This document shows, one piece after another, positions 7,988 to 25,920 of a stretch of DNA of 64,000 bases (the stretch's first letter is position 1; the number at the start of each line of letters is the position of its first letter). The notes under the pieces were generated by a model. That model had not been told where the DNA came from. It ran no database searches and saw nothing but the letters and a program-made list of their open reading frames with translations. Position numbers and translations under genes: made by a program. Source of the DNA: Escherichia coli (GTDB lineage: Bacteria > Pseudomonadota > Gammaproteobacteria > Enterobacterales > Enterobacteriaceae); NCBI RefSeq assembly GCF_003790525.1, contig NZ_CP033635.1; one strand, 5' to 3'.

Positions 7988-8004
7988 TTAAGATTATTCC
8001 GCTG

Positions 8005-8045
8005 GCGGGTCGATTTATTTACGTAAATCGGCCCGCTTTCTTTTT
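8005..8045 (+). terminator. speA intrinsic terminator
   Basis: Inverted repeat gcgggtcgattta/taaatcggcccgc followed by tttcttttt. Confidence 0.6.
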
Positions 8046-8132
8046 ATATATTCTTAAAAATAATTTAGCTGCTTTTCTTATTAAATAATCCCCCTACAAT
8101 CGCTGCATTAATTAAATGCAGAGGGAACGGTT

Positions 8133-8864
8133 ATGAAAAAATGGAAAGTACGTAGCGCGTTGATAGCATTAGCCGTGCTGCTGGCCGGTTGTTCCAGTAA
8201 TGCGCAGTATAATAGCAGTGCATCAGGCAATGTCGGCACCGCCTGGGGTGGGGATGTGCACTCATCGGTTCAGGGCGTATCTGCTGAACGAGTCTGGCGC
8301 GATCCGGCAGAGATGATCGTTATTAGTTATTCGACTACTGTTCCTTCGGGCTACGACCGCGTTTATAGCATTCGTATTAACGAACTTGAATATGCTATTC
8401 GCGATGGTAATTTTAATTCTCTACCTATTACGCGGGTTTATGATTCGTCAAATAATGAACCACGCTATATTGTCCATGCCAGAGTAGGAATGAATTATCA
8501 ATTATATGTCCGCAATTACAGTCGTAATACCAACTACGAGATCGTTGCTACGGTTGATGGCCTGGATGTGCTGAACGGCAAGCAAGGTTCGCTGAATAAC
8601 AACGGCTATATTGTGAATGCCGGAGATTCGTTAGCGATTAAAGGATTCCGCAAAGATAAACATACCGAAGCGGCTTTTCAGTTCGCCAACGTTGTTGATT
8701 CCTACGCAGCCAATTCGGCGCAAGGCGATGTGCGTAATACCGGTGTAATCGGCTTTGCCGCCTTTGAATTACAAGGCCCGGCGCAAAACGCGCTGCCGCC
8801 GTGCTCTGGACAAGCCTTTCCGGCGGACAACAATGGCTATGCGCCGCCACCGTGTCGGAAATAG
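8133..8864 (+). CDS. predicted lipoprotein of unknown function (243 aa); not recalled in K-12 between speA and speB
   Basis: Signal peptide MKKWKVRSALIALAVLLAGC with lipobox LAGC; SD gagggaa upstream; own terminator downstream; N/S/Y-rich mature region; lower GC than neighbours by eye. Confidence 0.75.
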   Translation: MKKWKVRSALIALAVLLAGCSSNAQYNSSASGNVGTAWGGDVHSSVQGVSAERVWRDPAEMIVISYSTTVPSGYDRVYSIRINELEYAIRDGNFNSLPITRVYDSSNNEPRYIVHARVGMNYQLYVRNYSRNTNYEIVATVDGLDVLNGKQGSLNNNGYIVNAGDSLAIKGFRKDKHTEAAFQFANVVDSYAANSAQGDVRNTGVIGFAAFELQGPAQNALPPCSGQAFPADNNGYAPPPCRK

Positions 8865-8930
8865 CAACCTCGCTTGATGCCTCGTCCATTTAAGGCGATA
8901 ATTAGCGCAAACTTGTGTTTCGCAAATCCA

Positions 8931-8972
8931 ACCCTTCCTCGTCGGGCCTAACGACGCGGAAGGGTTTTTTTA
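8931..8972 (+). terminator. intrinsic terminator after lipoprotein ORF
   Basis: Hairpin cccttcc...ggaaggg followed by ttttttt. Confidence 0.6.
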
Positions 8973-8999
8973 TATCGACTTTGTAATAGGAGTCCATCC

Positions 9000-9920
9000 A
9001 TGAGCACCTTAGGTCATCAATACGATAACTCACTGGTTTCCAACGCCTTTGGTTTTTTACGCCTGCCGATGAACTTCCAGCCATATGACAGCGATGCTGA
9101 CTGGGTGATTACTGGCGTGCCGTTCGATATGGCCACTTCTGGTCGTGCGGGTGGTCGCCACGGTCCGGCAGCGATCCGTCAGGTTTCGACGAATCTGGCC
9201 TGGGAACACAATCGCTTCCCGTGGAATTTCGACATGCGTGAGCGCCTGAACGTCGTGGACTGCGGCGATCTGGTATATGCCTTCGGAGATGCCCGTGAGA
9301 TGAGCGAGAAGCTGCAGGCGCACGCCGAGAAGCTGCTGGCTGCCGGTAAGCGTATGCTCTCCTTCGGTGGTGACCACTTTGTTACGCTGCCGCTGCTGCG
9401 TGCTCATGCGAAGCATTTCGGTAAAATGGCGCTGGTACACTTTGACGCCCATACCGATACCTACGCTAACGGTTGTGAATTTGACCACGGCACCATGTTC
9501 TATACCGCGCCGAAAGAAGGTCTGATCGACCCGAATCATTCCGTGCAGATTGGTATTCGTACCGAGTTTGATAAAGACAACGGCTTTACCGTGCTGGACG
9601 CCTGCCAGGTGAACGATCGCAGCGTGGATGACGTTATCGCTCAGGTGAAACAGATTGTAGGTGATATGCCGGTTTACCTGACCTTTGATATCGACTGCCT
9701 GGATCCTGCTTTCGCGCCGGGAACCGGTACGCCAGTAATTGGCGGCCTGACCTCCGATCGCGCTATTAAACTGGTACGCGGCCTGAAAGATCTCAACATT
9801 GTTGGGATGGACGTAGTGGAAGTGGCTCCGGCATACGATCAGTCGGAAATCACCGCTCTGGCTGCGGCGACGCTGGCGCTGGAAATGCTGTATATTCAGG
9901 CGGCGAAAAAGGGCGAGTAA
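9000..9920 (+). CDS. speB: agmatinase (agmatine ureohydrolase)
   Basis: 306-aa [38 protein letters not shown]... matches SpeB; arginase-family metal-binding motifs (DAHTD, DIDCLD). Confidence 0.95.
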
Positions 9921-10070
9921 GTCATCTGCCTGGTTGAATTTTTTACACAGTCCCTTGTCTGGCACAAGGGACTTATCATTTAAAACCTATCCTGTTAATT
10001 AAGTCATCTTTACCCTGACTGCTGTTTTTTTAATGGATTGTTATTATCACGTTTTTAATGGAATAAATAG

Positions 10071-11633
10071 ATGGAACGCACTCTTCCCTGGAAGCCCCTT
10101 CTTTGTTTGTTATTTCTTTTATCAACTGGCTGCGATAGAGCAGAAAAACAGAAAATTGCCGCACAGCTGCAACAAGACAAAGAAGCTATTTCCTCTGTCG
10201 TCAAAAAGAGTTATCGCGCATTATGTGGCCCTGAGTTTGTCACCAGCACAGATTCGCACGATCGCCTTGCGGAAATGCAGCAAGTATTTACACCTGCTTT
10301 AATGGAGCCTGTACTGAAATACTGGCAAGAGTCACCCAAAACGTGTAAACGACGTTTCCCCAGTTATAGCGATCCTTCAGCGACCTTCGTCGAAGGCGAC
10401 AAGGCGCAGATTGGTGCTTTTTTTGGTCACCAATCTTATATTGATATTCCAATGGAGTTAATCCGGCAAGGGGATGGTAAATGGAAGATTACTGCGATTG
10501 ATTTTGCATCGTTACACGAGTTTGAAAAAAACGGTCGGGTTACTGGTGAGGTGCAGAAGCAAATAGATTTGCTTAAAAAACGCTCATTCAAGCAACATAG
10601 GGATTCCCCTGTGCTGACGAGGACCGCGCCAGAGCGGGTCAGTAAGTCCCCTTTGACATCGATGGAGCAAACAGTTACGGAGCAAGACTCTTCCTGGCTG
10701 GATGTCTTACTGACAATAGGCAAATATGCCCTTTATCTGGTAGCGATAATACTTATTCTCGCCTTGGTGGCTGTTTTGTGGATTGGTTATGGCCTGGTGT
10801 TCGCCGGACATCGCCTTTTCAAAGCATCCTGTAGAGATCCCTCAATTCAAAAAATTCCTGTGGCTGAACGTTGGGCAATGGCAGTCGGCGCGCCTTATGC
10901 CATTGCGGGTAACAATCACTGGGCGCGACGAGTCGTTAATGATGATTCCGTGGAAGCAGAGAATGATTGCAAAAATGAAGTGGAGTCCCTTGCTGACATG
11001 TGGGGCGTCTTTGATCGGGATTCGTTACTTGAGCAACTCTTAGCTTTGTTTGTAGCAGGACATCGTCCAGTTTATGAAGAACAGATCAAAAACGATAGCG
11101 AAATGCCGGATGCTGAATATCGCGCGTTCGCTCAGCAATTAGCTCAGAACGCGAAATCAAGTAGCGAAGCGAAAGAGCGTTTGTGGCAGCTACAGATGGT
11201 CAGAAAAAATCGACGTAAAATATGCGATATAGATTTTTGTGCCTGGGATATGGTGCGTTTTGTCATGCTATGTAATAGCGGGGCGCAAGTGGGATACATT
11301 ACCCAGCGTGAAATGGTCGATTTTTCGATGCTGGCAGCCAGACGCGTACAGCAACATTACAGAAGCTGGCGCGAATTGGCCGGGCATTTTTTGCTGGCCC
11401 GTTGGTACTGGAAAGCAACGGATAAACGGCACCTGATTACCCATATTCTTTTTAAGAAAGCCATTACATCTTTATTAGAAGAGCAGGGGAGTCCGTGGCG
11501 TACTTTACCCTGGGATACTCCATTACCTGAAGGAACAGAGACGGCTTTTGCCTGGGCTTGTGGCGTAAGCACTGCCGATGTCGTAGAGGTGCGATCGGAT
11601 ACACCAGATAAAGCAATCTACGAAGCGAATTGA
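10071..11633 (+). CDS. hypothetical lipoprotein/membrane protein (520 aa): lipobox N-terminal domain, one TM helix, Trp-rich C-terminal domain (possibly DUF1266-like)
   Basis: N-terminus MERTLPWKPLLCLLFLLSTGC (lipobox LSTGC); hydrophobic helix YALYLVAIILILALVAVLWIGYGLVFAG mid-protein; AT-rich coding sequence; not recalled at this position in K-12. Confidence 0.7.
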   Translation: MERTLPWKPLLCLLFLLSTGCDRAEKQKIAAQLQQDKEAISSVVKKSYRALCGPEFVTSTDSHDRLAEMQQVFTPALMEPVLKYWQESPKTCKRRFPSYSDPSATFVEGDKAQIGAFFGHQSYIDIPMELIRQGDGKWKITAIDFASLHEFEKNGRVTGEVQKQIDLLKKRSFKQHRDSPVLTRTAPERVSKSPLTSMEQTVTEQDSSWLDVLLTIGKYALYLVAIILILALVAVLWIGYGLVFAGHRLFKASCRDPSIQKIPVAERWAMAVGAPYAIAGNNHWARRVVNDDSVEAENDCKNEVESLADMWGVFDRDSLLEQLLALFVAGHRPVYEEQIKNDSEMPDAEYRAFAQQLAQNAKSSSEAKERLWQLQMVRKNRRKICDIDFCAWDMVRFVMLCNSGAQVGYITQREMVDFSMLAARRVQQHYRSWRELAGHFLLARWYWKATDKRHLITHILFKKAITSLLEEQGSPWRTLPWDTPLPEGTETAFAWACGVSTADVVEVRSDTPDKAIYEAN

Positions 11634-11680
11634 TGCCCCAAATGATTGAGCTTGTTTAATGACTGTGACCGGCTCTGAAT

Positions 11681-11712
11681 GAAAATTTCTCCGACATTCC
11701 TGTCGGAGAAAT
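11681..11712. terminator. bidirectional hairpin between convergent 520-aa ORF and loiP
   Basis: Inverted repeat ttctccgaca/tgtcggagaa with U-rich flank on minus strand. Confidence 0.5.
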
Positions 11713-11718
11713 ATGAAA

Positions 11719-12477
11719 TCACTTTATCCCATCCGCGCTCATACGATCGCGAATATGCTGGGCGCGTTCGGCGGATGCTGGATGGTCGTCAAACATTGAG
11801 CTTTGACGGCCTTCTTCCAGTTTTGCCAGTTTTTCAAAGCTGGTGGCAAGACCTGCCGGGCTGATGCCGCGTTGGCGCAGAAGATCGTAAGAATAATCAT
11901 CGGCTTCTGCTTCCTGGCGCTGGGAGAATTGCGAATTAACTAATTTCTCGCCCAGATCACCGAGTTGTGATTGAGATAAACTGCCGACAATCCCGCCCGC
12001 AGAGGCCGCAGCTACTCGTACGGCATTTGTACCAAGTGCCACCTGCATCCCTTTCTTCACATGGCCTAACGCTACGTGCCCCATCTCGTGACCGATCACC
12101 GCTTCGACTTCGTTATCTGTCATCATATCCATCAGCCCGCTATAGACGCGGATACAGCCGTTAGCCATTGCAAAGGCGTTCACATCCTTCGCCATATACA
12201 CTTTGTAATTCACCGGCTGACCGTTGATATTGTTGCCTAGCGCATTGGCAATAGTTGTCAGACGTTTAGCGTATTCGCTATTGGTTGGCGCAATCGTCGC
12301 CTTGCTGTCCATCTCCTGACATGCCTGATCGCTCAGGGTTTTCACCTGCGCATCACTCAAACTGTAAGCCTGAAAAGCTTCCGCTCCTGATGAGAGCAGT
12401 CCGTTGGAGTCCATATTCTGGCAACCGGTCAGTACCGTTGCCACGCTCATTGCTACCAATAAGGCGCGAATTTTCAT
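11719..12477 (-). CDS. loiP: outer-membrane M48 metalloprotease lipoprotein LoiP (YggG)
   Basis: ORF 11719..12696; internal start MKIRALLVAMSVATVLTGCQN (lipobox) and HEMGH zinc motif; 252 aa. Confidence 0.9.
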   Translation of the reverse strand: MKIRALLVAMSVATVLTGCQNMDSNGLLSSGAEAFQAYSLSDAQVKTLSDQACQEMDSKATIAPTNSEYAKRLTTIANALGNNINGQPVNYKVYMAKDVNAFAMANGCIRVYSGLMDMMTDNEVEAVIGHEMGHVALGHVKKGMQVALGTNAVRVAAASAGGIVGSLSQSQLGDLGEKLVNSQFSQRQEAEADDYSYDLLRQRGISPAGLATSFEKLAKLEEGRQSSMFDDHPASAERAQHIRDRMSADGIK

Positions 12478-12754
12478 GTTTTCTCTTCCGCACAAGGTCA
12501 GGATTATTCTAAAAATGCGCCGTTTGCAGGTGAATCGACGCTCAGTCTCAGTATAAGGAAAAGCGCAGCGGACGGGCGAGCAGATTGCGCAACATGCGAG
12601 CATGATCCAGAGATTTCTGAAGCGGCAAAAGGATGTTCCATGTACATGACGCGCGGCTTGCGGTAAATTGTTGGCAAATTTTCCGGCGTAGCCCAAAACG
12701 CGCTGTCGTCAAGTCGTTAAGGGCGTGCCCTTCATCATCCGATCTGGAGTCAAA

Positions 12755-14746
12755 ATGTCCTCACGTAAAGAGCTTGCCAATGCTATTCGTGCGCTGAGCA
12801 TGGACGCAGTACAGAAAGCCAAATCCGGTCACCCGGGTGCCCCTATGGGTATGGCTGACATTGCCGAAGTCCTGTGGCGTGATTTCCTGAAACACAACCC
12901 GCAGAATCCGTCCTGGGCTGACCGTGACCGCTTCGTGCTGTCCAACGGCCACGGCTCCATGCTGATCTACAGCCTGCTGCACCTCACCGGTTACGATCTG
13001 CCGATGGAAGAACTGAAAAACTTCCGTCAACTGCATTCCAAAACGCCGGGCCACCCGGAAGTGGGCTACACCGCAGGTGTGGAAACCACTACTGGTCCGC
13101 TGGGTCAGGGTATTGCCAACGCAGTCGGTATGGCGATTGCAGAAAAAACGCTGGCGGCGCAGTTTAACCGTCCGGGCCACGACATTGTCGACCACTACAC
13201 CTACGCCTTCATGGGTGACGGCTGCATGATGGAAGGCATCTCCCACGAAGTTTGCTCTCTGGCGGGTACGCTGAAGCTGGGTAAACTGATTGCGTTCTAC
13301 GATGACAACGGTATCTCTATCGATGGTCACGTTGAAGGCTGGTTCACCGACGACACCGCAATGCGTTTCGAAGCTTACGGCTGGCACGTTATTCGCGGCA
13401 TCGACGGTCATGACGCGGCATCCATCAAACGCGCAGTAGAAGAAGCGCGCGCAGTGACTGACAAACCGTCCCTGCTGATGTGCAAAACCATCATCGGTTT
13501 CGGTTCACCGAACAAAGCCGGTACCCACGACTCCCACGGTGCGCCGCTGGGCGACGCTGAAATTGCCCTTACCCGCGAACAGCTGGGCTGGAAATATGCA
13601 CCGTTCGAAATCCCGTCTGAAATCTATGCTCAGTGGGATGCGAAAGAAGCAGGCCAGGCGAAAGAATCCGCATGGAACGAGAAATTCGCTGCTTACGCGA
13701 AAGCTTATCCGCAGGAAGCCGCTGAATTTACCCGCCGTATGAAAGGCGAAATGCCGTCTGACTTCGATGCCAAAGCGAAAGAATTCATCGCTAAACTGCA
13801 GGCTAATCCGGCGAAAATCGCCAGCCGTAAAGCGTCTCAGAATGCGATTGAAGCGTTCGGCCCGCTGTTGCCGGAATTCCTCGGCGGCTCTGCTGACCTG
13901 GCACCGTCTAACCTGACCCTGTGGTCTGGTTCTAAAGCAATCAACGAAGATGCTGCGGGTAACTACATCCACTACGGTGTTCGCGAGTTCGGTATGACCG
14001 CGATTGCTAACGGTATCTCCCTGCACGGTGGCTTCCTGCCGTACACCTCCACCTTCCTGATGTTCGTGGAATACGCACGTAACGCCGTACGTATGGCTGC
14101 GCTGATGAAACAGCGTCAGGTGATGGTTTACACCCACGACTCCATCGGTCTGGGCGAAGATGGCCCGACTCACCAGCCGGTTGAGCAGGTCGCTTCACTG
14201 CGCGTGACCCCGAACATGTCCACATGGCGTCCGTGTGACCAGGTTGAATCCGCGGTCGCGTGGAAATACGGCGTTGAGCGTCAGGACGGCCCGACTGCGC
14301 TTATCCTCTCCCGTCAGAACCTGGCGCAGCAGGAACGTACTGAAGAGCAGCTGGCAAACATCGCGCGCGGTGGTTATGTGCTGAAAGACTGTGCCGGTCA
14401 GCCGGAACTGATCTTCATCGCGACCGGTTCTGAAGTTGAACTGGCGGTTGCTGCCTACGAAAAACTGACTGCTGAAGGCGTGAAAGCGCGCGTGGTTTCC
14501 ATGCCGTCTACCGACGCGTTCGACAAGCAGGATGCGGCTTACCGTGAGTCTGTACTGCCGAAAGCGGTTACTGCACGCGTTGCGGTGGAAGCGGGTATTG
14601 CTGACTACTGGTACAAGTATGTTGGCCTGAACGGTGCTATCGTCGGCATGACCACCTTCGGTGAATCTGCTCCGGCAGAGCTGCTGTTTGAAGAGTTCGG
14701 CTTCACCGTTGACAACGTTGTTGCGAAAGCAAAAGAACTGCTGTAA
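12755..14746 (+). CDS. tktA: transketolase 1
   Basis: ORF 12725..14746; [41 protein letters not shown] matches TktA. Confidence 0.95.
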
Positions 14747-14767
14747 TCGGTAAGATACTTTGTGAGA

Positions 14768-14793
14768 AGGGCCGCGAAAGCGGCCCTTTTTTT
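14768..14793. terminator. tktA intrinsic terminator (bidirectional, abuts SPFH gene stop)
   Basis: gggccgc-gaaa-gcggccc followed by ttttttt. Confidence 0.7.
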
Positions 14794-15700
14794 ACTTAGT
14801 AGAGATAAACGGAACTGTGCTGCCGGGGATCATGGTATCGGGCAGTTTACCGTCCCAACGTTCGGCAGTGGTGAGGGCTACAAGTCCGGGATTATCCCGC
14901 AGAGCTTCACCGCGCAGGCGGATCGCTTCTGCTTCAGCCGCACTTTTTAAACGAATAGTTTCAGCCTCTGCCGCGCCTCTTACGCGAATAGTTTCCGCTT
15001 CTGCTTTAGCTGCCGCCAGTTTACTGTCTGCTTCTGCCTGGGCCTGAGTTACCGCTATTTGCGCCTGGATTTTCTCTGTTTCCAGATTTTGCTTACGCGT
15101 GGCAATGGCGACTTCTGCTTTCATTCGGTCTTCAATCGACTTTTCATAAGCGTCAGAAAAATCAATATTTTCAATCTGGACCCCGTCAATTACCACTGGC
15201 CCAACAACGGCTTTGCGCATGGCATTTTGCAGATCCTGAACCAGTTTTGTACGATCCTGTACAGCGCTGATGGCGGTATATTGGCCGAAAACGTTCTCCA
15301 GTTGAGTTGGCAACTGACGGACAATCAGACGATCTTTTAATGCTTCAATGGTGTTGTAGGTGGTATAAACCGCGCCTGCTTCTGAAGGTTTAATGTGGAA
15401 GCTGACTGATACTGTCATTTGTGCCGGTTGCTGGTCGCGGCTGTAGGCCTGTAATCCCTGATAGACCACAGCCTGATTACGCGTGGAAATTTTCTCCACG
15501 CTTTCCATAAACGGGATCTTAAAACCCAGACCCGGCTCGGCAACTTTTACGATTTTTCCGTAGCGCAGCAAAATGCCGCGTTCACCTTCATTAACGGTGT
15601 AATACGAGAGAAATGGCAGCACAACCACGGCAAGCACGCCAATGGCGATAGCAAGAGATTTTTGTGGGCGAAATGAGGTTAATGAAACAGGTGCTTTCAT
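14792..15700 (-). CDS. SPFH/band-7 (prohibitin/HflC-like) membrane protein with C-terminal coiled-coil repeats; not recalled in K-12 between tktA and cmtB
   Basis: N-terminal TM helix LAIAIGVLAVVVLPF, SPFH-like core, C-terminal AEAETIR(V/L)RG repeats and ERWDGKLP motif; SD aggaag upstream of ATG 15700. Confidence 0.7.
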   Translation of the reverse strand: MKAPVSLTSFRPQKSLAIAIGVLAVVVLPFLSYYTVNEGERGILLRYGKIVKVAEPGLGFKIPFMESVEKISTRNQAVVYQGLQAYSRDQQPAQMTVSVSFHIKPSEAGAVYTTYNTIEALKDRLIVRQLPTQLENVFGQYTAISAVQDRTKLVQDLQNAMRKAVVGPVVIDGVQIENIDFSDAYEKSIEDRMKAEVAIATRKQNLETEKIQAQIAVTQAQAEADSKLAAAKAEAETIRVRGAAEAETIRLKSAAEAEAIRLRGEALRDNPGLVALTTAERWDGKLPDTMIPGSTVPFISTK

Positions 15701-16077
15701 GACAATCTTCCTTGAGTAAAGTGTGGGAATATGTCACATGAGATGAGGAGAAAACAGCCGACAGGTGAGAATTCAGAATCTATAAAGGGGTATAGCGAAA
15801 AAACATTGCTTTAAAAAAGTATGTTTTCGGACATTCAATAAATAAATGGCGATATGCATCACAAATACAACAATAATCAAAATGTTGATTTTGTGATAAA
15901 CGTAACAAATACAAAGTTGACTTTAAAAATATCAACTTCATGTTGTTATTATTTAAGGTTTTATTATTTTTGTTCATGGGGTTTTTCTTCTCGCGTACCC
16001 AATTGCTTTCATTAAACCGCACGAGTATTTTATTTTTACCGCCGGACGGTACCCTAAAAATAAAATAAGGATAATTT

Positions 16078-16521: not shown

Positions 16522-16548
16522 TTACTCTCTCCTCTACAGGATAATATT

Positions 16549-17937: not shown

Positions 17938-17951
17938 TTACAGAGGTAAAA

Positions 17952-19229
17952 ATGAAAACCAAAGTTGCTGCTATTTATGGCAAGCGGGATGTCCGTCTGC
18001 GCGAATTTGAACTGCCAGAAATTACCGATAATGAACTGTTAGTGAGTGTAATTTCTGACAGCGTCTGTTTATCGACCTGGAAAGCGGCGTTGCTTGGTAG
18101 TGAACATAAACGCGTACCCGACGATTTAGAAAATCATCCGGTCATTACCGGGCATGAATGTGCCGGGGTTATTGTTGAAGTGGGTAAAAATCTCACCGAC
18201 AAATATAAAAAAGGCCAGCGTTTTGTATTGCAACCGGCGATGGGGTTACCAAGCGGATATTCAGCGGGCTACAGCTACGAATATTTTGGCGGTAACGCCA
18301 CCTATATGATTATTCCCGAGATCGCCATTAACCTGGGCTGCGTATTACCCTATCACGGCTCTTATTTTGCTGCGGCGTCGCTGGCAGAGCCTATGTGCTG
18401 CATTATTGGCGCTTATCATGCCAATTATCACACTACGCAATATGTTTATGAGCATCGCATGGGCGTCAAACCTGGCGGCAATATTGCGCTGCTGGCGTGT
18501 GCAGGTCCGATGGGCATTGGCGCTATCGATTACGCCATTAACGGCGGTATACAACCGTCGCGGGTGGTGGTGGTCGATATCGACGACAAACGGCTGGCGC
18601 AGGTAGAGAAGCTGCTGCCGGTGGAACTGGCGGCCAGTAAAGGCATTGAGCTGGTGTATGTGAATACCAAAGGGATGAGCGATCCGGTACAGATGCTGCG
18701 GGCGCTGACGGATGATGCCGGATTTGATGACGTATTTGTCTATGCAGCGGTGCCTTCAGTCGTCGAGATGGCTGATGAATTACTGGCGGAAGATGGCTGC
18801 ATGAACTTCTTTGCCGGGCCAACGGATAAAAACTTCAAAGTGCCGTTTAATTTCTACAACGTCCATTACAACAGCACGCACGTCGTCGGTACATCTGGCG
18901 GTTCAACGGACGACATGAAAGAGGCGATTACCCTTAGCGCCACGGGACAGTTACAGCCGTCGTTTATGGTGACCCATATTGGTGGCCTTGATGCGGTGCC
19001 AGAAACCGTGCTCAATCTGCCGGATATCCCAGGCGGTAAAAAACTCATTTATAACGGCGTGACCATGCCGCTCACTGCCATTGCCGATTTTGCCGAAAAA
19101 GGCAAAACCGATCCGCTGTTTAAAGAGTTGGCGCGGCTGGTTGAGGAAACGCACGGCATCTGGAATGAGCAGGCCGAGAAATATCTGCTGGCGCAATTTG
19201 GCGTTGATATCGGGGAGGCCGCGCAATGA
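17952..19229 (+). CDS. yggP: zinc-dependent alcohol/polyol dehydrogenase family protein
   Basis: 425-aa ORF MKTKVAAIYGKRDVRLREFELPEI...; MDR-family features (GHECAG). Confidence 0.8.
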   Translation: MKTKVAAIYGKRDVRLREFELPEITDNELLVSVISDSVCLSTWKAALLGSEHKRVPDDLENHPVITGHECAGVIVEVGKNLTDKYKKGQRFVLQPAMGLPSGYSAGYSYEYFGGNATYMIIPEIAINLGCVLPYHGSYFAAASLAEPMCCIIGAYHANYHTTQYVYEHRMGVKPGGNIALLACAGPMGIGAIDYAINGGIQPSRVVVVDIDDKRLAQVEKLLPVELAASKGIELVYVNTKGMSDPVQMLRALTDDAGFDDVFVYAAVPSVVEMADELLAEDGCMNFFAGPTDKNFKVPFNFYNVHYNSTHVVGTSGGSTDDMKEAITLSATGQLQPSFMVTHIGGLDAVPETVLNLPDIPGGKKLIYNGVTMPLTAIADFAEKGKTDPLFKELARLVEETHGIWNEQAEKYLLAQFGVDIGEAAQ

Positions 19230-20191
19230 TGTCCCTGGCGTGGCCATTATTTCGCGTTACGGAACAGGCAGCGTTGGCTGCCTGGCCGCAAATCGGATGT
19301 GGCGACAAAAATAAAATTGATGGCCTGGCGGTCACCGCGATGCGCCAGGCATTAAACGACGTCGCTTTTCGTGGGCGAGTGGTTATCGGCGAGGGAGAGA
19401 TTGACCATGCGCCGATGCTGTGGATTGGCGAAGAGGTGGGCAAAGGCGATGGGCCAGAAGTCGATATCGCGGTTGATCCGATTGAAGGCACCAGGATGGT
19501 GGCGATGGGGCAGAGCAATGCGCTGGCAGTCATGGCCTTCGCCCCACGAGGCAGCCTGCTACACGCTCCCGATATGTATATGAAAAAACTGGTTGTTAAT
19601 CGGCTGGCGGCGGGCGCGATTGATCTGTCTTTGCCACTGGTGGACAACCTGCGCAACGTGGCGAAAGCGTTAGGCAAACCGCTGGACAAGCTGCGCATGG
19701 TTACGCTGGATAAACCGCGCCTGAGTGCCGCGATTGAAGAAGCAACACAGCTGGGCGTGAAGGTTTTCGCTCTGCCGGATGGCGATGTCGCCGCCAGCGT
19801 GCTGACCTGCTGGCAGGATAATCCTTACGATGTGATGTACACCATCGGCGGTGCGCCAGAAGGCGTGATTTCTGCCTGTGCCGTTAAAGCATTAGGCGGG
19901 GATATGCAGGCCGAGCTGATTGACTTTTGTCAGGCTAAAGGGGATTACACGGAAAATCGGCAGATTGCAGAGCAGGAGCGCAAGCGTTGCAAGGCAATGG
20001 GCGTTGACGTTAACCGTGTGTACTCGCTCGATGAACTGGTGAGGGGGAACGATATCCTCTTTAGCGCTACGGGCGTGACGGGTGGCGAGTTGGTGAACGG
20101 TATCCAACAGACGGCGAATGGGGTGCGGACGCAGACATTACTGATCGGCGGCGCGGACCAAACGTGTAATATAATAGACTCCCTGCATTGA
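19226..20191 (+). CDS. yggF: class II fructose-1,6-bisphosphatase (GlpX-like)
   Basis: 321-aa ORF with GlpX-like motifs; start overlaps yggP stop. Confidence 0.85.
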   Translation: MMSLAWPLFRVTEQAALAAWPQIGCGDKNKIDGLAVTAMRQALNDVAFRGRVVIGEGEIDHAPMLWIGEEVGKGDGPEVDIAVDPIEGTRMVAMGQSNALAVMAFAPRGSLLHAPDMYMKKLVVNRLAAGAIDLSLPLVDNLRNVAKALGKPLDKLRMVTLDKPRLSAAIEEATQLGVKVFALPDGDVAASVLTCWQDNPYDVMYTIGGAPEGVISACAVKALGGDMQAELIDFCQAKGDYTENRQIAEQERKRCKAMGVDVNRVYSLDELVRGNDILFSATGVTGGELVNGIQQTANGVRTQTLLIGGADQTCNIIDSLH

Positions 20192-20212
20192 TGGTGATCT
20201 ATCGGAAGACGA

Positions 20213-20722
20213 ATGGCGACGCTGACAGAAGATGATGTGCTTGAGCAACTGGATGCACAGGACAATTTATTTTCATTTATGAAAACTGCGCATTCTATTT
20301 TGCTCCAGGGGATACGCCAGTTTCTGCCGTCGCTGTTTGTCGATAACGATGAAGAGATCGTCGAATATGCAGTGAAGCCGTTACTCGCCCAAAGCGGCCC
20401 GCTTGACGATATTGATGTTGCGCTGCGTTTGATTTATGCGCTGGGGAAAATGGATAAATGGCTGTACGCCGATATCACGCATTTTTCCCAGTTCTGGCAT
20501 TACCTGAACGAACAGGATGAAATGCCCGGATTTGCCGATGACATGACCTGGGATTTTATCAGCAACGTCAATAGTATAACCCGCAATGCGACGCTCTATG
20601 ACGCATTGAAAGCGATGAAGTTCGCCGATTTCGCCGTCTGGTCAGAGGCGCGTTTTAGCGGGATGGTCAAAACGGCGCTGACGCTGGCAGTAACGACCAC
20701 CTTAAAGGAATTAACGCCGTGA
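20213..20722 (+). CDS. yggD: MtlR-like regulator/fumarase E family protein
   Basis: 169-aa ORF MATLTEDDVLEQLDAQDNLFSFMKTAHSILLQG... matches YggD. Confidence 0.8.
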   Translation: MATLTEDDVLEQLDAQDNLFSFMKTAHSILLQGIRQFLPSLFVDNDEEIVEYAVKPLLAQSGPLDDIDVALRLIYALGKMDKWLYADITHFSQFWHYLNEQDEMPGFADDMTWDFISNVNSITRNATLYDALKAMKFADFAVWSEARFSGMVKTALTLAVTTTLKELTP

Positions 20723-21432
20723 AAATTGAATTAACGGTGAATGGGCTGAAGATACAGGCACAGTACCAGAACGAAGAGATTGAAAATGTACATAAACCGT
20801 TGCTGCACATGTTGGCGGCCTTACAGACGGTAAATCCGCAGCGGCGTACGGTGGTTTTTCTTTGCGCTCCGCCGGGGACGGGTAAATCTACCCTAACCAC
20901 CTTCTGGGAATATATCGCGCAACAAGACCCGGAACTGCCCGCTATTCAGACGCTACCGATGGATGGTTTTCATCATTACAATAGCTGGCTGGATGCGCAT
21001 CAATTGCGCCCCTTCAAAGGCGCACCAGAGACATTTGACGTTGCGAAACTGGCGGAAAATCTGCGCCAGGTCGTGGAAGGGGATTGTACGTGGCCGCAGT
21101 ACGATCGACAAAAGCATGATCCTGTTGAAGATGCGTTGCACGTTACCGCACCACTCGTCATCGTCGAAGGAAACTGGTTGTTGCTGGACGACGAGAAGTG
21201 GCGCCAGCTTGCGCAATTTTGTGATTTCTCGATCTTTATCAAAGCTCCCGCATCTGCGTTGCGGGAGCGTCTGGTGGGGCGCAAGCTGGCGGGAGGGTTA
21301 TCGCTGGCAGACGCAGAAGCCTTTTATGACCGTACCGACGGGCCGAATGTTCGCCGGGTGCTGGAAGAGAGTCTGCCTGCAAATTTGACCTTAATGATGA
21401 CCGCTACGGGTGAATATCGTCTGATGGATTAA
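20719..21432 (+). CDS. yggC: P-loop kinase (uridine kinase/PRK-like)
   Basis: 237-aa ORF, GTG start overlapping yggD stop; Walker A APPGTGKST. Confidence 0.8.
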   Translation: MKIELTVNGLKIQAQYQNEEIENVHKPLLHMLAALQTVNPQRRTVVFLCAPPGTGKSTLTTFWEYIAQQDPELPAIQTLPMDGFHHYNSWLDAHQLRPFKGAPETFDVAKLAENLRQVVEGDCTWPQYDRQKHDPVEDALHVTAPLVIVEGNWLLLDDEKWRQLAQFCDFSIFIKAPASALRERLVGRKLAGGLSLADAEAFYDRTDGPNVRRVLEESLPANLTLMMTATGEYRLMD

Positions 21433-22081
21433 CGTTCCTGATTACACCATCTTCCAGTCGCACCACACGAGAGAAATGACGCCGGGTAAATGCGGCGTCA
21501 TGACTGATTGCTACGACGCTCGTGCCTCGCTGGCGGCACTTTTCCAGCCAACTTTCAAACACGCTCATCCAATTTTCGTCAAAATCCCGACTCGGCTCGT
21601 CCAGCAGCAATAGCGGCGGAGAGAGTGCTTCCAGGCAGGCGACGGCGACCATCCGTCGCTGCGCACTATGCAGATCCAGCGGATGCGCGCTGGCAGTGTC
21701 TGCTAACTGACAGCATTGCAGGGCAGCATTGGTACGTTGAGTGATTTCATCCGCCGGGCATTTTTGCAGTTTCAAACCAAATGCGATCTCGTCAGCGACG
21801 GTGCTGTGAAAAAGCTGGTTTTCCGCTTCCTGAAACAGTACGCCAATCTTTGCCGCGCGCTGGCGGTTTTTCAGGTTTTTCATCGCCTGTTGTTGCAGCA
21901 TAACCGTACCGGCTGTGGGCGTAAGAAGACCTGCCATTACTCGTAACAGCGTCGATTTTCCCGCGCCATTGTCGCCGGTCAGCGCCAACCATTCACCTTG
22001 TTTGAGTTGCAGAGAAATGTCGCAAAGACAATCCGTTGCCGCGTCAGGCCAGCGATAAGTTATCTGATTTAACGTTAACAT
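21404..22081 (-). CDS. ABC-type ATPase, ECF-transporter energizing subunit with degenerate signature motif (EcfA'-like)
   Basis: Walker A GDNGAGKST, Walker B LLLLDEPSRDFD, H-loop ISHD, but signature region reads LHSAQRR instead of LSGGQ; ATG 22081 overlaps upstream ATPase stop (ATGTTAA). Confidence 0.75.
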   Translation of the reverse strand: MLTLNQITYRWPDAATDCLCDISLQLKQGEWLALTGDNGAGKSTLLRVMAGLLTPTAGTVMLQQQAMKNLKNRQRAAKIGVLFQEAENQLFHSTVADEIAFGLKLQKCPADEITQRTNAALQCCQLADTASAHPLDLHSAQRRMVAVACLEALSPPLLLLDEPSRDFDENWMSVFESWLEKCRQRGTSVVAISHDAAFTRRHFSRVVRLEDGVIRNVNPSDDIHP

Positions 22082-22752
22082 AGTGGCTGGAGCGCTCCGT
22101 TTTGCAATTGCCACGCTTGCTGGCAGTAGTTCAGGAAAGGTGTACGATGACGTTCAAAAAGAATAATCAGCGAACCACGTTCAAGCGCCCAGTGTTGTAA
22201 GCGCTGCAACAGCATTTCGCAGGCCTGCGGCGTCAGGCGGCTAAAGGCTTCATCAAGAATTAAGAGCTTTGGCTGCATCGCGATGGCGCAGGCGATGACC
22301 ACACGCTGTGTCTCTCCACCGGAGAGTGTTGCCGGGTGACGATGGCGCAACGGCTGGCACTCGGTCAGAGTCAGGGCGGCATCAATCCGCGCCATAATCT
22401 CCTCTTCAGCAAGACACAGATTTTCTGGCCCAAAGGCAACTTTTTCTTCCACGCTAAAGGTACAGCCGGAGAGCTGCAAATAGGGCGATTGCTGAACGAG
22501 CTGGATGGTGGCGGATTGTTCATTAAGCGGGATATGCCCAATGGGCGTACCGAGAAGCGTCCCCGTGCCGGTTATCTCTCCTGGCAGAAAGTCCGGATAC
22601 CAGCCCGCCATCAGCTGTGCCAGCGTACTTTTGCCACTGCCGTTGTCACCAAAGATGGCGACCATCCCCGGTTTGACATAGTGAAAGTCATAACAGAACG
22701 GAGGATGCGTTGAGTGTGTCGGGCAATAGCGAAACTGTTCTAACGTAACCAT
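22075..22752 (-). CDS. ABC-type ATPase, ECF-transporter energizing subunit (EcfA-like)
   Basis: Walker A GDNGSGKST, canonical signature LSGGETQR, Walker B LLILDEA; start could be 22758 or 22752. Confidence 0.75.
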   Translation of the reverse strand: MVTLEQFRYCPTHSTHPPFCYDFHYVKPGMVAIFGDNGSGKSTLAQLMAGWYPDFLPGEITGTGTLLGTPIGHIPLNEQSATIQLVQQSPYLQLSGCTFSVEEKVAFGPENLCLAEEEIMARIDAALTLTECQPLRHRHPATLSGGETQRVVIACAIAMQPKLLILDEAFSRLTPQACEMLLQRLQHWALERGSLIILFERHRTPFLNYCQQAWQLQNGALQPLC

Positions 22753-23447
22753 ATCCACGCTCCGAATTCAGCCAGCATTAGCAAGATCATGGCGTAACGT
22801 GCTACGCGTTGTAGGGTGCTATCGGCTGGTGCCCATAACGTAGTGCGCCTATTGTTGATTCGAAATGCCCGCATATCCAGCGCCGCACCACGGACAGCCA
22901 GATCGTTAAGCGCATTGTGTGTTAGCGGAATAATTAGCGCGGGCATCGCGCGTAAACGCTGATACCAGCCTTCATCAAGCGGCACGCCGCGGGCGCGCTG
23001 CGCTTCATGAATAATCGCTAATTGCCGTTTTAACTGCTCAACGACCAACAACGGCCCGGCGAACAGATAAGCGACGCCCGGCGGCAGGCGAGAAGCAAAC
23101 AAAGCGCGGATAAAACGTTGCACTGGGACGTACTGCATCCACAACTGCGAGGTTGAAACAATCGCCAGAATCCGCAACCAGAGCGTAATAGCATGCGTCC
23201 ACCGTTCTGGCGAGCGTGGCGTGCCGCTTAGCCATTCTATCAGCCAGCCACCGTGTACCAGCCACAGTCCAGCCCCCAGCGAGAACATCAGCCAGACGAC
23301 ATATTTTGCCCGCCGCCGCGTGGCCTTTAGCGCAATAAGGCAGAAAAAGGTCGCCGCGCTATAGACTGGCAATATTGTCTGTGTGGGCAGGATAAGCGTG
23401 GTGTAGGCCGCCAGCGCCCACAGCGTTAATGAGGTAAACGGATGCAT
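22740..23447 (-). CDS. ECF transporter transmembrane T component (CbiQ/EcfT-like)
   Basis: Polytopic 235-aa protein with Ala-Arg-Gly-type coupling motifs (EAQRARGV; LAVRGAALD); ATG directly follows stop of upstream gene. Confidence 0.65.
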   Translation of the reverse strand: MHPFTSLTLWALAAYTTLILPTQTILPVYSAATFFCLIALKATRRRAKYVVWLMFSLGAGLWLVHGGWLIEWLSGTPRSPERWTHAITLWLRILAIVSTSQLWMQYVPVQRFIRALFASRLPPGVAYLFAGPLLVVEQLKRQLAIIHEAQRARGVPLDEGWYQRLRAMPALIIPLTHNALNDLAVRGAALDMRAFRINNRRTTLWAPADSTLQRVARYAMILLMLAEFGAWIWLR

Positions 23448-24026
23448 TTAGCGCACGGCTGCCATTGCCGGAAAATGGCGCGTGGTGCGAATCGGCAGCT
23501 GACGCAGTAAAAGCCAGACAATCACCGCTGTAAGAATTTTATCGACCAGGTTTGCGCCTATCACCGTAATCGCCACCGACTCCACCAGGTTTTGCCCCAT
23601 AGAGTGCATCCAGGCAACGAACAAATCGGCTCCGCTACCGGTGACACCGCCGAACAGCGCAGTACGCAGCGGTACAGCGACGACCGTTACCGCAAGCGTA
23701 ATAATCACGCCGCTGACAACGACTTTTGGCAGGGTGCGGAACCAACCCGCTCGCGCCAGCCAACCGGCGACCAGGCCGATGACCATCGCCACGGGCGCAA
23801 ATGCGGCGGCGATCGGGTCGGTCAGCAATCCCCAGAGTAAATTGGTCAGTAAGCCGGTCAGCATCCCGATCACCGGACCAAGCAGTACCGCGCTAATAAG
23901 TGTGCCGACGGAGTCGAGAAATATAGGTAATTTGACCATGCTGGCCAGTTGCCCGCCGATCATATTGATGGCGATAGATATAACGATCAACACCAGCGCC
24001 TGACTGGAAAAGTGGCGACGCGCCAT
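23448..24026 (-). CDS. small integral membrane protein, putative ECF substrate-capture S component
   Basis: About 190 aa, 5-6 predicted TM helices, sits first in transporter gene order; start chosen at MARRHFSSQ (ORF extends to 24125). Confidence 0.55.
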   Translation of the reverse strand: MARRHFSSQALVLIVISIAINMIGGQLASMVKLPIFLDSVGTLISAVLLGPVIGMLTGLLTNLLWGLLTDPIAAAFAPVAMVIGLVAGWLARAGWFRTLPKVVVSGVIITLAVTVVAVPLRTALFGGVTGSGADLFVAWMHSMGQNLVESVAITVIGANLVDKILTAVIVWLLLRQLPIRTTRHFPAMAAVR

Positions 24027-24048
24027 AAGAAAACCTCTCTGAAAATAG

Positions 24049-24480
24049 TTAGTTAACGGGGGAAATATGCAACTCGTCGTAACCAGAAAGCGCGCAAGGC
24101 TGGCGGCTAAACGCCAGTTCCTCAAGGCAGCCGATCACCAGTTCAAGCGTGGTCCGCACGGTACAGCCGGGCATCATATGACCGCCAAGCATCGTGCCGT
24201 GTGGATCGGAAACGCAGAGATGAAGATGTTCACCACTCTGTTCCAGCGTGCCGTTCAATGCGATGACTTCGAACTTACCGCTTAGTAGGGCAGTGTTTTC
24301 TTGCCCGGCATAGCGTAAGGCGACGTCAGTCAGACTGCCGGTACAACCTGCAATCCACGCGGCGTGAAGTTGTTGTTGCTGCGCGAAGGCGCGTAATTGG
24401 GAGAGAACTTCCTGCCCGGGGAGCAGGCGCAGCGCGTAAAAACGTGCGGAGGAAGAATATGGGTAGGGCAATGTCATCAT
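24049..24480 (-). CDS. DUF296/PPC-domain-like protein (143 aa) of unknown function, first gene of the cluster
   Basis: 143-aa ORF; family assignment from recollection of PPC-domain proteins, not verified. Confidence 0.5.
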   Translation of the reverse strand: MMTLPYPYSSSARFYALRLLPGQEVLSQLRAFAQQQQLHAAWIAGCTGSLTDVALRYAGQENTALLSGKFEVIALNGTLEQSGEHLHLCVSDPHGTMLGGHMMPGCTVRTTLELVIGCLEELAFSRQPCALSGYDELHISPVN

Positions 24481-24608
24481 TGGAGTACTCCGAAACTCGG
24501 ACGTATTGCGGATAATATCGACGCTGCATCAGTCATATTCTGATATAAGTCAGGGTTTGTGACGGCACAACGAAAAGATTTTGCTACGCTTATTCGTGAT
24601 TCTGCAAA

Positions 24609-24624
24609 GTGGAATAAATTCCAC
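24609..24624. promoter_or_regulatory. inverted repeat GTGGAA-N4-TTCCAC in divergent intergenic region, with a further copy of the motif at 24690..24699
   Basis: gtggaataaattccac at 24609..24624; ttttattccac at 24689..24699 is the same motif inverted; lies between the DUF296/ECF cluster and epd. Confidence 0.3.
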
Positions 24625-24851
24625 AGGGGCGGGGCTGAAAACGTGACGTAAGTCAGATAATTGTCTTCTTTGACTGGACAATCATTCCTTTTATTCCACG
24701 TTTCGCTTATCCTAGCTGAAGCGTTTCAGTCGATTAAATGTTCGACAATTAACCAATCAGTCGCAGTTTGCGACAGGTAAGGTTTCCCCGGACGATTTGC
24801 TGGATTACTCTGTCTGGCAAATTTGCTCAGGGAAAACCTTGCAGGAGATCT

Positions 24852-25871: not shown

Positions 25872-25920
25872 GACGCAAGCAGCGTCTGCAAAACTTTTAG
25901 AATCAACGAGAGGATTCACC

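Follow-up and report, generated by a model that had tools for sequence, protein, structure and literature searches.

The comparison of E. coli O157:H7 with K-12 by Perna et al. in 2001 reportedly described strain-specific 'O-islands'. Hotspots of variable content that are free of mobile genetic elements (MGE), and whose flanking core genes frequently undergo homologous recombination, have been established as a pattern (PMC5635113). One site of this kind of difference has been recorded in the E. coli W paper, which lists a cbiQ-O2 system for cobalt transport in the epd-yggC region, a system absent from the three other safe laboratory strains compared (PMC3032704). The window analysed here, a stretch of 64,000 nucleotides of an E. 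coli chromosome (contig NZ_CP033635.1), contains that region and three further sites at which K-12 lacks genes. The four blocks are, with good probability, long-standing presence/absence alleles at four intergenic slots between speA and epd, and not insertions that took place in this strain.

Four K-12-absent segments between speA and epd

The window corresponds to the metK-speA-speB-loiP-tkt-cmt-ygg-epd-pgk region of E. coli, and its best matches are 100% identical across positions 6000-26000. In the RefSeq annotation of an identical strain, speA is followed, in this order, by a hypothetical protein, speB, a DUF1266 protein, loiP, tkt, a prohibitin-family protein, cmtB and cmtA, and then by yggP, glpX/yggF, fumE, a kinase resembling yggC, two ABC ATPases, ECF T, ECF S, a PPC-domain protein, epd and pgk. 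MG1655 carries speA-speB-loiP-tktA-cmtBA-yggP-yggF-fumE-yggC-epd with no genes interposed. An earlier reading, made from the sequence only, had this K-12 order right, and both the MG1655 annotation and blastn place the four blocks outside that genome. Whole-interval alignment, a check that it proposed, is interrupted against MG1655 at precisely four places: segment 1, with the lipoprotein gene (7988-8922, + strand; the window has 935 bp and K-12 has 60 unaligned bp), segment 2, with the DUF1266 gene (9922-11720, + strand; 1799 against 206 bp), segment 3, with the SPFH/prohibitin gene (14748-15999, - strand; 1252 against 234 bp), and segment 4, with a five-gene ECF cluster (21364-24630, - strand; 3267 against 132 bp). 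Within the 62 kb that align to MG1655, no other K-12-absent segment exceeds 102 bp, and the clustering of these four within this window is real. The intervals given for the blocks in the sequence-only reading (8133-8864, 10071-11633, 14792-15700 and 21404-24480) match real open reading frames, and the flanking core proteins are K-12-like as it had said, with 98-100% identity and YggC as the exception (87%). Its description of these neighbours as core genes holds for E. coli but not across the Enterobacteriaceae: the cmtBA-yggPFDC block is core only within E. coli, and in many Enterobacteriaceae tkt directly adjoins epd or the ECF cluster.

The same reading had seen no integrase, transposase, tRNA or flanking repeat, which RefSeq annotation, a tRNA scan and a search for junction repeats bore out. 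No integrase, transposase or recombinase is annotated between speA and epd in the identical strain, and Pfam and NCBIfam scans gave no mobility domains in the accessory proteins. The interval 4000-28000 contains no tRNA or tmRNA, and 5000-28000 no Rfam family. No direct repeats or target-site duplications bracket any segment; near the junctions, only imperfect repeats of 12-22 nt were found, at chance level. Codon usage gave a mixed result. In three of the four blocks GC3 and CAI lie somewhat below those of the neighbours, with GC3 of 0.47 for the lipoprotein, 0.44 for DUF1266 and 0.46 for SPFH, but the ECF genes have 0.55-0.67, and among the comparison genes, mostly core neighbours at 0.51-0.64, cmtB is lower at 0.37. 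The lower GC3 of the lipoprotein, DUF1266 and SPFH genes could reflect an earlier horizontal acquisition.

Gene content of the four slots

Segment 1 (7988..8922) contains the 243-aa lipoprotein gene (8133-8864, + strand), the upstream region that belongs to this gene and the hairpin of the speA terminator. Its final ~58 bp (8865-8922) are homologous, though diverged, to the speA-speB spacer of K-12, and the homology of this short tract is weak (z=2.8). The product, with an LLAGC motif and a Cys20 that is invariant in the alignment of homologues, is a predicted lipoprotein of all-beta structure. All 5 non-K-12 Escherichia representatives, as well as 5 species of other genera, carry its gene between speA and speB; in Salmonella enterica and Klebsiella the gene directly follows speA, and it comes after speA in Citrobacter too. 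Other species have HipA/B-like genes or a transposase in this slot.

Segment 2 (9922..11720) replaces the whole speB-loiP spacer, which in K-12 is a REP/BIME array. It encodes a 520-aa DUF1266 protein (10071-11633, + strand) between a hairpin after speB (9949-9977) and a bidirectional terminator-like hairpin (11676-11721). Residues 306-481 match PF06889 over profile positions 1-175 of 175 (Pfam; 107.2 bits, cutoff 27). An LSTGC motif places a cysteine at position 21, and Cys21-Asp22 is invariant among full-length homologues. The predicted model (pLDDT 87.7) consists of an NTF2-like domain, a long helix at 208-243, which covers the hydrophobic residues at about 226-252, and a DUF1266 domain that is all-alpha. 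The protein is probably an inner-membrane-retained lipoprotein whose NTF2-like domain is periplasmic and whose DUF1266 domain is cytoplasmic, with one transmembrane helix between them. Its relatives number 1196 among 1.84 billion cluster representatives, and no solved structure resembling the DUF1266 part was found. K-12 has the DUF1266 members YbeR and YbeU; to our knowledge, no function has been assigned to the family.

The 302-aa SPFH/prohibitin-family gene (14792-15700, - strand), within 14748..15999, is convergent with tkt and shares with it a hairpin at about 14766-14790. Upstream, ~15770-15999 is a highly diverged homologue of the region upstream of K-12 cmtB (61% identity, z=4.9 against shuffles). 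Residues 35-210 match Band_7 (PF01145) in Pfam at 111.6 bits (cutoff 23.6). HflC, HflK and QmcA are distant relatives of the protein, which falls far below the NCBIfam equivalog cutoffs for HflC (60.5 against 134.4) and HflK (37.4 against 159.4). Judged by these similarities it is a putative accessory membrane-scaffold paralogue of HflK/C and QmcA; YqiK is another SPFH/Band 7 protein of E. coli K-12. The gene is present in 4 Escherichia representatives, directly follows tkt in Kluyvera intermedia, and adjoins epd in a contig on which one protein bears the name of Klebsiella spallanzanii.

The ECF cluster lies on the - strand and, by RefSeq annotation and Pfam, comprises two ABC ATPases (21404-22081 and 22075-22752; ABC_tran), the T component (22740-23447; CbiQ at 22.4 bits, under the cutoff of 25), the S component (23448-24026; ECF_trnsprt at 34.9 bits, cutoff 30.7) and a PPC/DUF296-domain protein (24049-24480; PCC at 96 bits). 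Segment 21364..24630 also takes in the left part of the PPC-epd spacer. For both ATPases the best NCBIfam similarity is to ECF ATPase models. S, T and two ATPases are encoded together, and the cluster is predicted from this content to be a dedicated S-T-A-A' uptake system, accompanied by a PPC-domain protein. No substrate could be assigned to it from the CD3073-family model (135.6 against a cutoff of 180), from PDB sequence relatives (none) or from a riboswitch or Rfam family (none). ECF genes stand beside epd, yggC or tkt in 21 of 80 species-representative loci (one genome per species), among them E. whittamii, E. albertii, Salmonella diarizonae, about 10 Citrobacter species, Klebsiella oxytoca, K. 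grimontii and Atlantibacter; in 19 non-Escherichia species the cluster is beside epd.

Age and proposed exchange of the alleles

The distribution check suggested earlier was informative. Among 5,426 complete E. coli genomes, the lipoprotein segment is present in 3557 (66%), the ECF segment in 3330 (61%), the SPFH segment in 1830 (34%, with two allele classes) and the DUF1266 segment in 211 (3.9%), and in other Escherichia species these slots are occupied by the same genes. The ECF site has two alleles (3330 present and 2089 K-12-type ECF-less, together 5419/5426), as does the SPFH site (1830 present and 3595 K-12-type empty, together 5425/5426). Present and absent alleles have the same boundaries in every E. 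coli genome, and the four sites occur in differing combinations. One genome (L096) carries the recombinant combination of lipoprotein and SPFH genes without the ECF cluster, and O157:H7 genomes have the lipoprotein gene and the ECF cluster. In 59 evenly spaced rows of a ranking, from which haplotype frequencies were taken, all four sites are empty in about 31% of genomes, including K-12, BL21 and ATCC 8739. Neighbouring genes show IS1- and deletion-mediated decay in other strains.

Sequence divergence provides a second line of evidence. The blocks and the flanking core genes show broadly similar synonymous divergence. All four blocks are under purifying selection, with dN/dS of 0.04-0.09 for the lipoprotein, 0.02 for SPFH and 0.24 for DUF1266; for the ECF genes it is mostly 0.04-0.2, with a single within-E. 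coli value of 0.39. Against E. albertii, dS of the lipoprotein (0.85) and SPFH (0.77) genes exceeds that of the flanks (0.18-0.58), which fits older allelic lineages and also transfer from elsewhere. In the same comparison fumE and ecfA2 are unusually low (0.06-0.08, most other genes 0.2-0.6), which may be a trace of recombination at the flanks. Against Salmonella and Citrobacter, the ECF genes have dS of 1.2-2.0, and flanking core genes about 0.4-3.0. None of the 80 species-representative loci has the DUF1266 gene, even with hits up to E<1 counted; outside E. coli it was found at the speB-loiP slot only in one E. albertii assembly, as a copy with an in-frame stop. Its dS to that copy (0.18) compares with 0.18 for tkt and 0.23 for speB, and the copy could have been imported from E. 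coli along with its flanks.

K-12 empty spacers align over their length with the empty spacers of Salmonella, Citrobacter, Raoultella and others. On sequence grounds, the empty alleles that K-12 carries at the ECF, SPFH and lipoprotein sites are judged to be old, sharply bounded and highly diverged. Directly outside the diverged tracts, identity is 100%. An example is the allele-specific 3' tail of yggC (21190..21432, + strand), which in the ECF-bearing allele shares 29 bp with the 3' end of the ECF ATPase gene. Between window and K-12, yggC is near-identical to about 21185 and then differs at 6-15 (mostly 11-15) of every 30 positions; the first 450 bp are 98.9% and the last 230 bp 61% identical. 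The window tail is 97% identical to that of E. albertii and 72% to that of Salmonella. The K-12 tail is 90% identical to that of a cryptic-clade Escherichia genome (L003), likewise without the ECF cluster.

The most serious alternative is that all four blocks were present in the ancestor of E. coli and that the K-12 lineage lost each by simple in-situ deletion, in four events and with no exchange of alleles. All four blocks do occur in sister Escherichia species, the all-empty combination is concentrated in genomes of the K-12, BL21 and ATCC 8739 type as lineage-specific loss predicts, decay through IS1 and deletion has affected neighbouring genes elsewhere, and a genuine ECF scar is seen in Escherichia sp. 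E1V33 (L005), where the 3' end of ecfA2 is fused to the 5' end of the PPC gene. The K-12 ECF-less allele, however, has no remnant of the cluster, and its yggC tail is 39% diverged with a sharp boundary; its spacer is homologous to those of Citrobacter and Raoultella, and the allele is shared, at species-level divergence, with the cryptic-clade genome. Moreover, the K-12 tkt-cmtB and speA-speB spacers retain the complete Salmonella/Citrobacter architecture, down to a tkt terminator of the ancestral type, and their divergence from the matching tracts of alleles with the genes is ~40%. This alternative is therefore considered unlikely. The earlier suggestion that these could be ancestral genes lost from K-12, and not recent insertions, is supported as the better of its two readings, with the correction that the ECF, SPFH and lipoprotein empty alleles are not fresh deletion scars.

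It is more improbable still that the slots are hotspots of integration, where different genera gained similar genes independently, by repeated targeted insertion and not by common descent. The speB-loiP slot is clearly multi-allelic, with at least 3 alternative contents between conserved core genes: the REP array of K-12, DUF1266 in the window, unrelated genes in other genera, and a 7.4-kb dagR/PTS/dgaE/dagF operon in RM8082 and the cryptic-clade Escherichia genome; the HipA/B-like genes or transposase at speA-speB point the same way. Nevertheless, the lipoprotein, SPFH and ECF blocks recur as the same orthologues, in the same orientation and with the same junctions, their divergence scales with that of the flanks, and neither integration machinery nor target-site duplication is present.

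Recent independent horizontal insertion into this strain or close relatives, the headline claim of 'four separate insertions', can practically be set aside: although the blocks are missing from K-12, three have lower GC3 and CAI than their neighbours and DUF1266 is rare, three are found in 34-66% of E. coli genomes, the same positions are shared with other Escherichia (all four) and other genera (three) instead of the sporadic, non-syntenic distribution expected of an island, dS equals or, for lipoprotein and SPFH against E. albertii, exceeds that of the flanks, either of which argues against recency, boundaries are the same in all genomes, and there are no mobility genes, tRNAs or repeats.

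The reading preferred here is that long-standing presence and absence alleles are exchanged at the four slots, most likely through homologous recombination in the flanks. Both allele types would be old and would move within and between Escherichia species by recombination in the conserved speA, speB, tkt and epd; K-12 would simply be a carrier of the absent allele at all four sites. Such exchange would require no mobility genes, tRNA or direct repeats, and it would explain why each junction coincides with a sharp switch from ~1% to ~40% divergence and why the four sites occur in different combinations.

Comparison with known systems

At the level of individual genes, the window SPFH protein resembles K-12 HflK, HflC and QmcA in its Band_7 domain, its N-terminal hydrophobic segment and its similarity to solved chains. 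It differs in that its gene stands alone, neither FtsH nor a partner gene being encoded nearby, and belongs to the accessory genes of E. coli. The C-terminal 175 residues of the DUF1266 protein match PF06889 from end to end, whereas the combined lipobox, NTF2-like, transmembrane and DUF1266 architecture is found at full length in only a few clusters. The ECF genes are the same cluster, at the same position, as that reported from E. coli W (PMC3032704), where cobalt is an annotation label only; the window S component matches only the generic ECF_trnsprt model of Pfam and, below cutoff, the CD3073 family.

At the level of the locus, the blocks are like O-islands in being small, absent from MG1655 and set in a collinear backbone. 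They differ from the classical large O-islands, which are associated with prophages or integrases, in that they are single genes or one operon, lack such machinery and are older than the species. A close parallel is provided by MGE-free hotspots (Oliveira, Touchon, Cury and Rocha 2017, PMC5635113; Touchon et al. 2009, PMC2617782), which likewise have variable content between fixed core genes; the window slots, too, are without a recognisable mobile element, and sharp divergence switches and recombinant combinations are possible signs of homologous recombination at their flanks. In contrast to hotspots with fast turnover, three of the four slots are essentially two-allele, and only speB-loiP has several contents. 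The variation at the four blocks is ordinary pan-genome variation of a kind already described.

Accessory blocks and their distribution in E. coli

From 6000 to 26000 the window is 100% identical to several complete E. coli genomes, which identifies it as E. coli chromosome. In the RefSeq annotation of one identical genome, the genes run speA, a 243-aa hypothetical protein, speB, a 520-aa DUF1266 protein, loiP (minus strand) and tkt, followed by a 302-aa prohibitin-family protein (minus strand), cmtB, cmtA, yggP, glpX/yggF, fumE and a yggC-type kinase, and then by five minus-strand genes (two ABC ATPases, ECF T, ECF S and a PPC-domain protein), epd and pgk. The MG1655 backbone is identical in order, with all four slots empty. 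Specifically, blastn alignment with MG1655 breaks at 7988–8922 between speA and speB (predicted lipoprotein gene, 8133–8864), at 9922–11720 between speB and loiP (DUF1266 gene, 10071–11633), at 14748–15999 between tkt and cmtB (SPFH gene, 14792–15700) and at 21364–24630 between yggC and epd (ECF cluster, 21404–24480). The 62 kb of the window alignable to MG1655 hold no further K-12-absent segment longer than 102 bp. At 52205–52308 the window has 102 bp against about 1 kb in K-12 (L098 20121–21125, covering ygfF), and about 130 bp between fbaA and mscS (window 28401–28437) occur only in K-12.

A sequence-only reading of this region had placed the genes correctly, given the K-12 gene order accurately and seen no mobility functions, and annotation and blastn agree with it on these points. 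The RefSeq annotation of the region in the identical genome contains neither integrase nor transposase, a search for tRNA genes near the blocks was negative, and none of the direct or inverted repeats sought at the blocks brackets one of them. Additionally, an Rfam scan of the region returned no family or riboswitch, and short-word blastn of the unaligned K-12 spacers for block remnants gave nothing above chance.

Among 5,426 complete E. coli genomes, the lipoprotein gene is carried by 3557, the ECF cluster by 3330, the SPFH gene by 1830 (in two allele classes, 95–99% and 90–95%) and the DUF1266 gene by 211 (in several identity classes, 95.5% to 100%). Searches with K-12-specific sequence reveal that two of the sites are cleanly two-allele: the 3330 ECF-bearing and 2089 K-12-type genomes together account for 5419 of the 5426, and the 1830 SPFH-bearing and 3595 K-12-type genomes for 5425. 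Rough shares of block combinations were obtained from about 60 evenly spaced rows of a ranking by coverage of a 20-kb query, decoded via annotated examples. All four blocks occur in about 3% of the sampled rows, lipoprotein, SPFH and ECF together in about 27% (CFT073, E2348/69), lipoprotein and ECF in about 30% (O157:H7, O104:H4), and no block in about 31% (K-12, BL21, ATCC 8739). Rare recombinants also exist, such as an E. coli locus (L096) with lipoprotein and SPFH genes and without the ECF cluster.

Some strains show decay in adjacent "core" genes. CFT073 carries a yggF/glpX pseudogene with an internal deletion (L087 11804–12119), and in FDAARGOS_1077 (L097 8272–9823) an IS1 is present and cmtB, cmtA and the 5' part of yggP are lost. 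One lead towards mobility, a partial DUF1266 DNA match beside an integrase and IS66 fragments in strain IH5 (H80), was rejected as a likely misassembly. The 12 kb concerned (L088 1–12647) consist of dozens of truncated unrelated fragments (wcaA, tssH, btuB, gspD/E/F, an integrase, a DUF1266 piece) and most likely reflect faulty assembly of a RefSeq genome labelled "complete".

Age of the present and absent alleles

The headline of the sequence-only reading, four separate insertions, proved wrong, as the blocks are syntenic in other species and appear to be functional, long-resident genes. The outgroup sample came from a LoiP scan of one genome per GTDB species, which yielded 80 loci including 10 kb to either side, mapped by tblastn. 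ECF genes occur at 21 of the 80 loci at 59–92% protein identity, adjoining epd, or yggC/tkt where the locus ends; the carriers are E. whittamii, E. albertii, Salmonella diarizonae, about ten Citrobacter species, Klebsiella oxytoca, K. grimontii, Atlantibacter, Superficieibacter, Silvania and others. The lipoprotein gene fills the speA–speB slot in all five non-K-12 Escherichia representatives and also lies between these genes in Intestinirhabdus, two Citrobacter, one Enterobacter and Klebsiella spallanzanii. In Salmonella enterica and Klebsiella, too, it is found directly 3' of speA. By eye only, ORFs in the speA–speB slot are HipA/HipB-like in an Enterobacteriaceae MAG (L022 17598–19647) and transposase-like in Pseudenterobacter timonensis (L041 11911–13463).

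The SPFH gene was confined to Escherichia in the first scan of loci, and homologues with 84–88% identity were later found outside the genus, directly 3' of tkt in Kluyvera intermedia and adjoining epd on a contig with a gene whose product bears the name of Klebsiella spallanzanii. The K. spallanzanii locus of the sample (L049 1921–1998) retains a 28-residue remnant of the SPFH C-terminus between epd and yggC (68% identity, E=4e-5). This remnant suggests an ancestral tkt–SPFH–epd order, as in Kluyvera, with the cmt–ygg block placed otherwise than in Escherichia. The "core" block cmtBA–yggPFDC is itself variable across genera, and in many species tkt directly adjoins epd or the ECF cluster.

Even at E<1, none of the 80 loci gave a match to the DUF1266 gene. 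In an E. albertii assembly with flanks 98–99% identical to the E. albertii type strain, the interval from speB to loiP contains a 90%-identical copy, which carries an in-frame stop. In the E. albertii assembly GCA_946060805.1 (L083 1–4000), DctP, SDR, GntR and MR_MLE genes lie upstream of the lipoprotein gene, speA is absent within 4 kb upstream of it, and speB-like fragments with 74–83% identity to the window speB occur at 3301–3826; the speA side of this locus looks rearranged or island-bearing.

Divergence and constraint were compared with those of the flanking genes. Against E. albertii, DUF1266 has a dS of 0.18, equal to tkt (0.18), with speB at 0.23. The lipoprotein and SPFH genes have a dS of about 0.3 against E. 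whittamii, the same as their flanks, and of 0.77–0.85 against E. albertii, above the flanks (0.18–0.58). Against Salmonella and Citrobacter, the ECF genes show 1.2–2.0, with flanking core genes at about 0.4–3.0. The dN/dS ratio is 0.04–0.09 for the lipoprotein, 0.02 for SPFH, 0.24 for DUF1266 and mostly 0.04–0.2 for the ECF genes, with one within-E. coli value of 0.39. Base composition is only mildly unusual: GC3 is 0.44–0.47 in the lipoprotein, DUF1266 and SPFH genes and 0.55–0.67 in the ECF genes, against 0.51–0.64 in core neighbours and 0.37 in cmtB.

The fallback of the sequence-only reading, ancestral genes lost from K-12, was right over insertion and needs one refinement, as the empty K-12 spacers do not appear to be deletion scars and the absent alleles are probably old too. 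The K-12 speA–speB and tkt–cmtB spacers can be aligned from end to end with their empty counterparts in Salmonella, Citrobacter, Raoultella and Klebsiella, and share the same tkt terminator with them. The window tracts beside the genes are homologous to these K-12 spacers and only about 60% identical to them (z=4.9 at tkt–cmtB and a weak z=2.8 at speA–speB against shuffles, as z-values of global-alignment scores, since identity with free end gaps came out higher for shuffled sequence). Immediately outside the diverged tracts, 100% identity between window and K-12 resumes.

A similar pattern is found at the ECF site, where the K-12 yggC–epd spacer contains a hairpin (ttattccag...ctggaataa) common to ECF-less Citrobacter and Raoultella. 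The first 450 bp of yggC are 98.9% identical between window and K-12 and the last 230 bp only 61%, with an abrupt switch at about 21185–21199 from 0–1 to 6–15 (mostly 11–15) differences per 30 bp. Identity of the window tail is 97% with E. albertii and 72% with Salmonella. A K-12-type tail occurs at 90% identity in L003, a cryptic-clade Escherichia without the ECF cluster, and the rest of yggC is equally diverged, so the ECF-less allele would be about as old as the split between E. coli and L003. A separate event is seen in Escherichia sp. E1V33 (L005), in which in-situ deletion of the ECF cluster left a 642-bp yggC–epd gap with the ecfA2 3' end joined to the initial ~75 bp of the PPC gene; this scar is independent of the K-12-type allele. 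In the window (20719–22081), the 3' ends of yggC and of the ECF ATPase gene convergent with it share 29 bp. A similar overlap appears in tblastn maps of most ECF-bearing loci with yggC (Escherichia, Salmonella, most Citrobacter), with a small gap instead at L022, L033 and L038, and the sequence of the YggC C-terminus goes partly with whether the ECF cluster is present.

Gene products

The ECF cluster is a complete dedicated module with S, T, two ATPases and a PPC/DUF296 protein. The S component scores below the CD3073-family cutoff, and a search for a PDB relative and a riboswitch found none. The label "cobalt transporter" from the E. coli W paper (PMC3032704) was dropped, as nothing here supports a substrate. 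The SPFH protein carries a Band_7 domain; HflC, HflK and QmcA are its distant relatives, and it is not an equivalog of any of them. The 243-aa putative lipoprotein matched no model in a Pfam/NCBIfam scan; members of its family occur in Enterobacteriaceae and, with roughly 40% identity, in Variovorax, Acidovorax and Paracoccus, and its predicted model is all-beta, with no convincing solved relative. A defence-island reading was dropped because PADLOC models gave no match among the lipoprotein, DUF1266, SPFH and PPC proteins.

On a speculative reading that seems unlikely, the DUF1266 protein would be a new type of transmembrane lipoprotein sensor, in which a periplasmic NTF2-like pocket is coupled to a cytoplasmic DUF1266 domain. 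The one paper found to mention DUF1266 (PMC7582179) includes EC042_RS03510. Locus tags in this region would be expected to be very different, and this gene is treated as another, putatively separate DUF1266 gene. A 529-aa paralogue of the putative DUF1266 lipoprotein, with 51% identity, lies between marC and an MFS transporter gene on an enterobacterial contig from SRR18030905 (L084 5119–6708), which is another single-gene slot between conserved genes.

Proposed cassette exchange and comparison with known systems

The sites show fixed boundaries, two probably old allele classes each, sharp divergence switches at the junctions and recombinant combinations. SpeA, SpeB, Tkt and Epd are 94–100% identical across genera at the protein level, and the fumE–yggC–ecfA2 stretch is unusually similar between E. 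coli and E. albertii (dS 0.06–0.08). We infer that blocks and absences alike would move as cassettes through homologous recombination within their strongly conserved flanks, an exchange that would need no mobility functions.

Among the slots, speB–loiP behaves most like a true hotspot, containing a REP/BIME array in K-12, DUF1266 in the window and unrelated genes in other genera. In E. coli RM8082 (L086 4180–11496) and a cryptic-clade genome (L004 10757–18392), this slot holds neither DUF1266 nor REP sequence and is occupied by a 7.4-kb dagR/mannose-type PTS/dgaE/dagF operon (D-glucosaminate), present in about 12% of sampled E. coli rows. The tkt–SPFH spacer varies as well: it is 45 bp with one hairpin (gggccgcgaaagcggccc) in the window (14747–14791), 223 bp with a hairpin, REP/BIME and a second hairpin copy in three other Escherichia species (among L003, L004, L006 and L007), and 575 bp with three tandem hairpin–REP units in Escherichia sp. 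MOD1-EC7003. It appears to behave as a REP-plus-terminator module that expands and contracts.

A less likely reading is that selection maintains the presence and absence alleles at these linked sites as trans-species polymorphisms, and that they are more than neutral remnants. The ECF site is the strongest case for trans-species polymorphism, since the ECF-less allele with its ~39%-diverged yggC tail, found in 38% of E. coli, is common to a cryptic-clade genome at ordinary between-species divergence. Such selection could arise if the ECF transporter, the SPFH protein and the lipoprotein help in certain hosts or niches but carry a cost elsewhere.

For the speA–epd neighbourhood, K-12 serves as a reduced reference, and "extra versus K-12" should not be read as "inserted". 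The four products, a putative ECF importer, an additional SPFH scaffold, a lipoprotein rich in beta structure and the rare membrane protein with DUF1266, are under purifying selection and are absent from the strain behind most E. coli physiology. The region offers a compact, well-bounded case of mobility-free accessory genes lasting as old presence/absence alleles between housekeeping genes, and could serve to test methods that date or track such alleles. Two points are mildly new: the diverged yggC tail, with its sharp boundary, that accompanies ECF absence, and the uncommon domain layout of the DUF1266 protein, itself rare. The variation of the four blocks is of a pan-genome kind already known, one of them has been explicitly reported before, and the proposed exchange follows the pattern described for hotspots without mobile elements (PMC5635113; see also PMC2617782).
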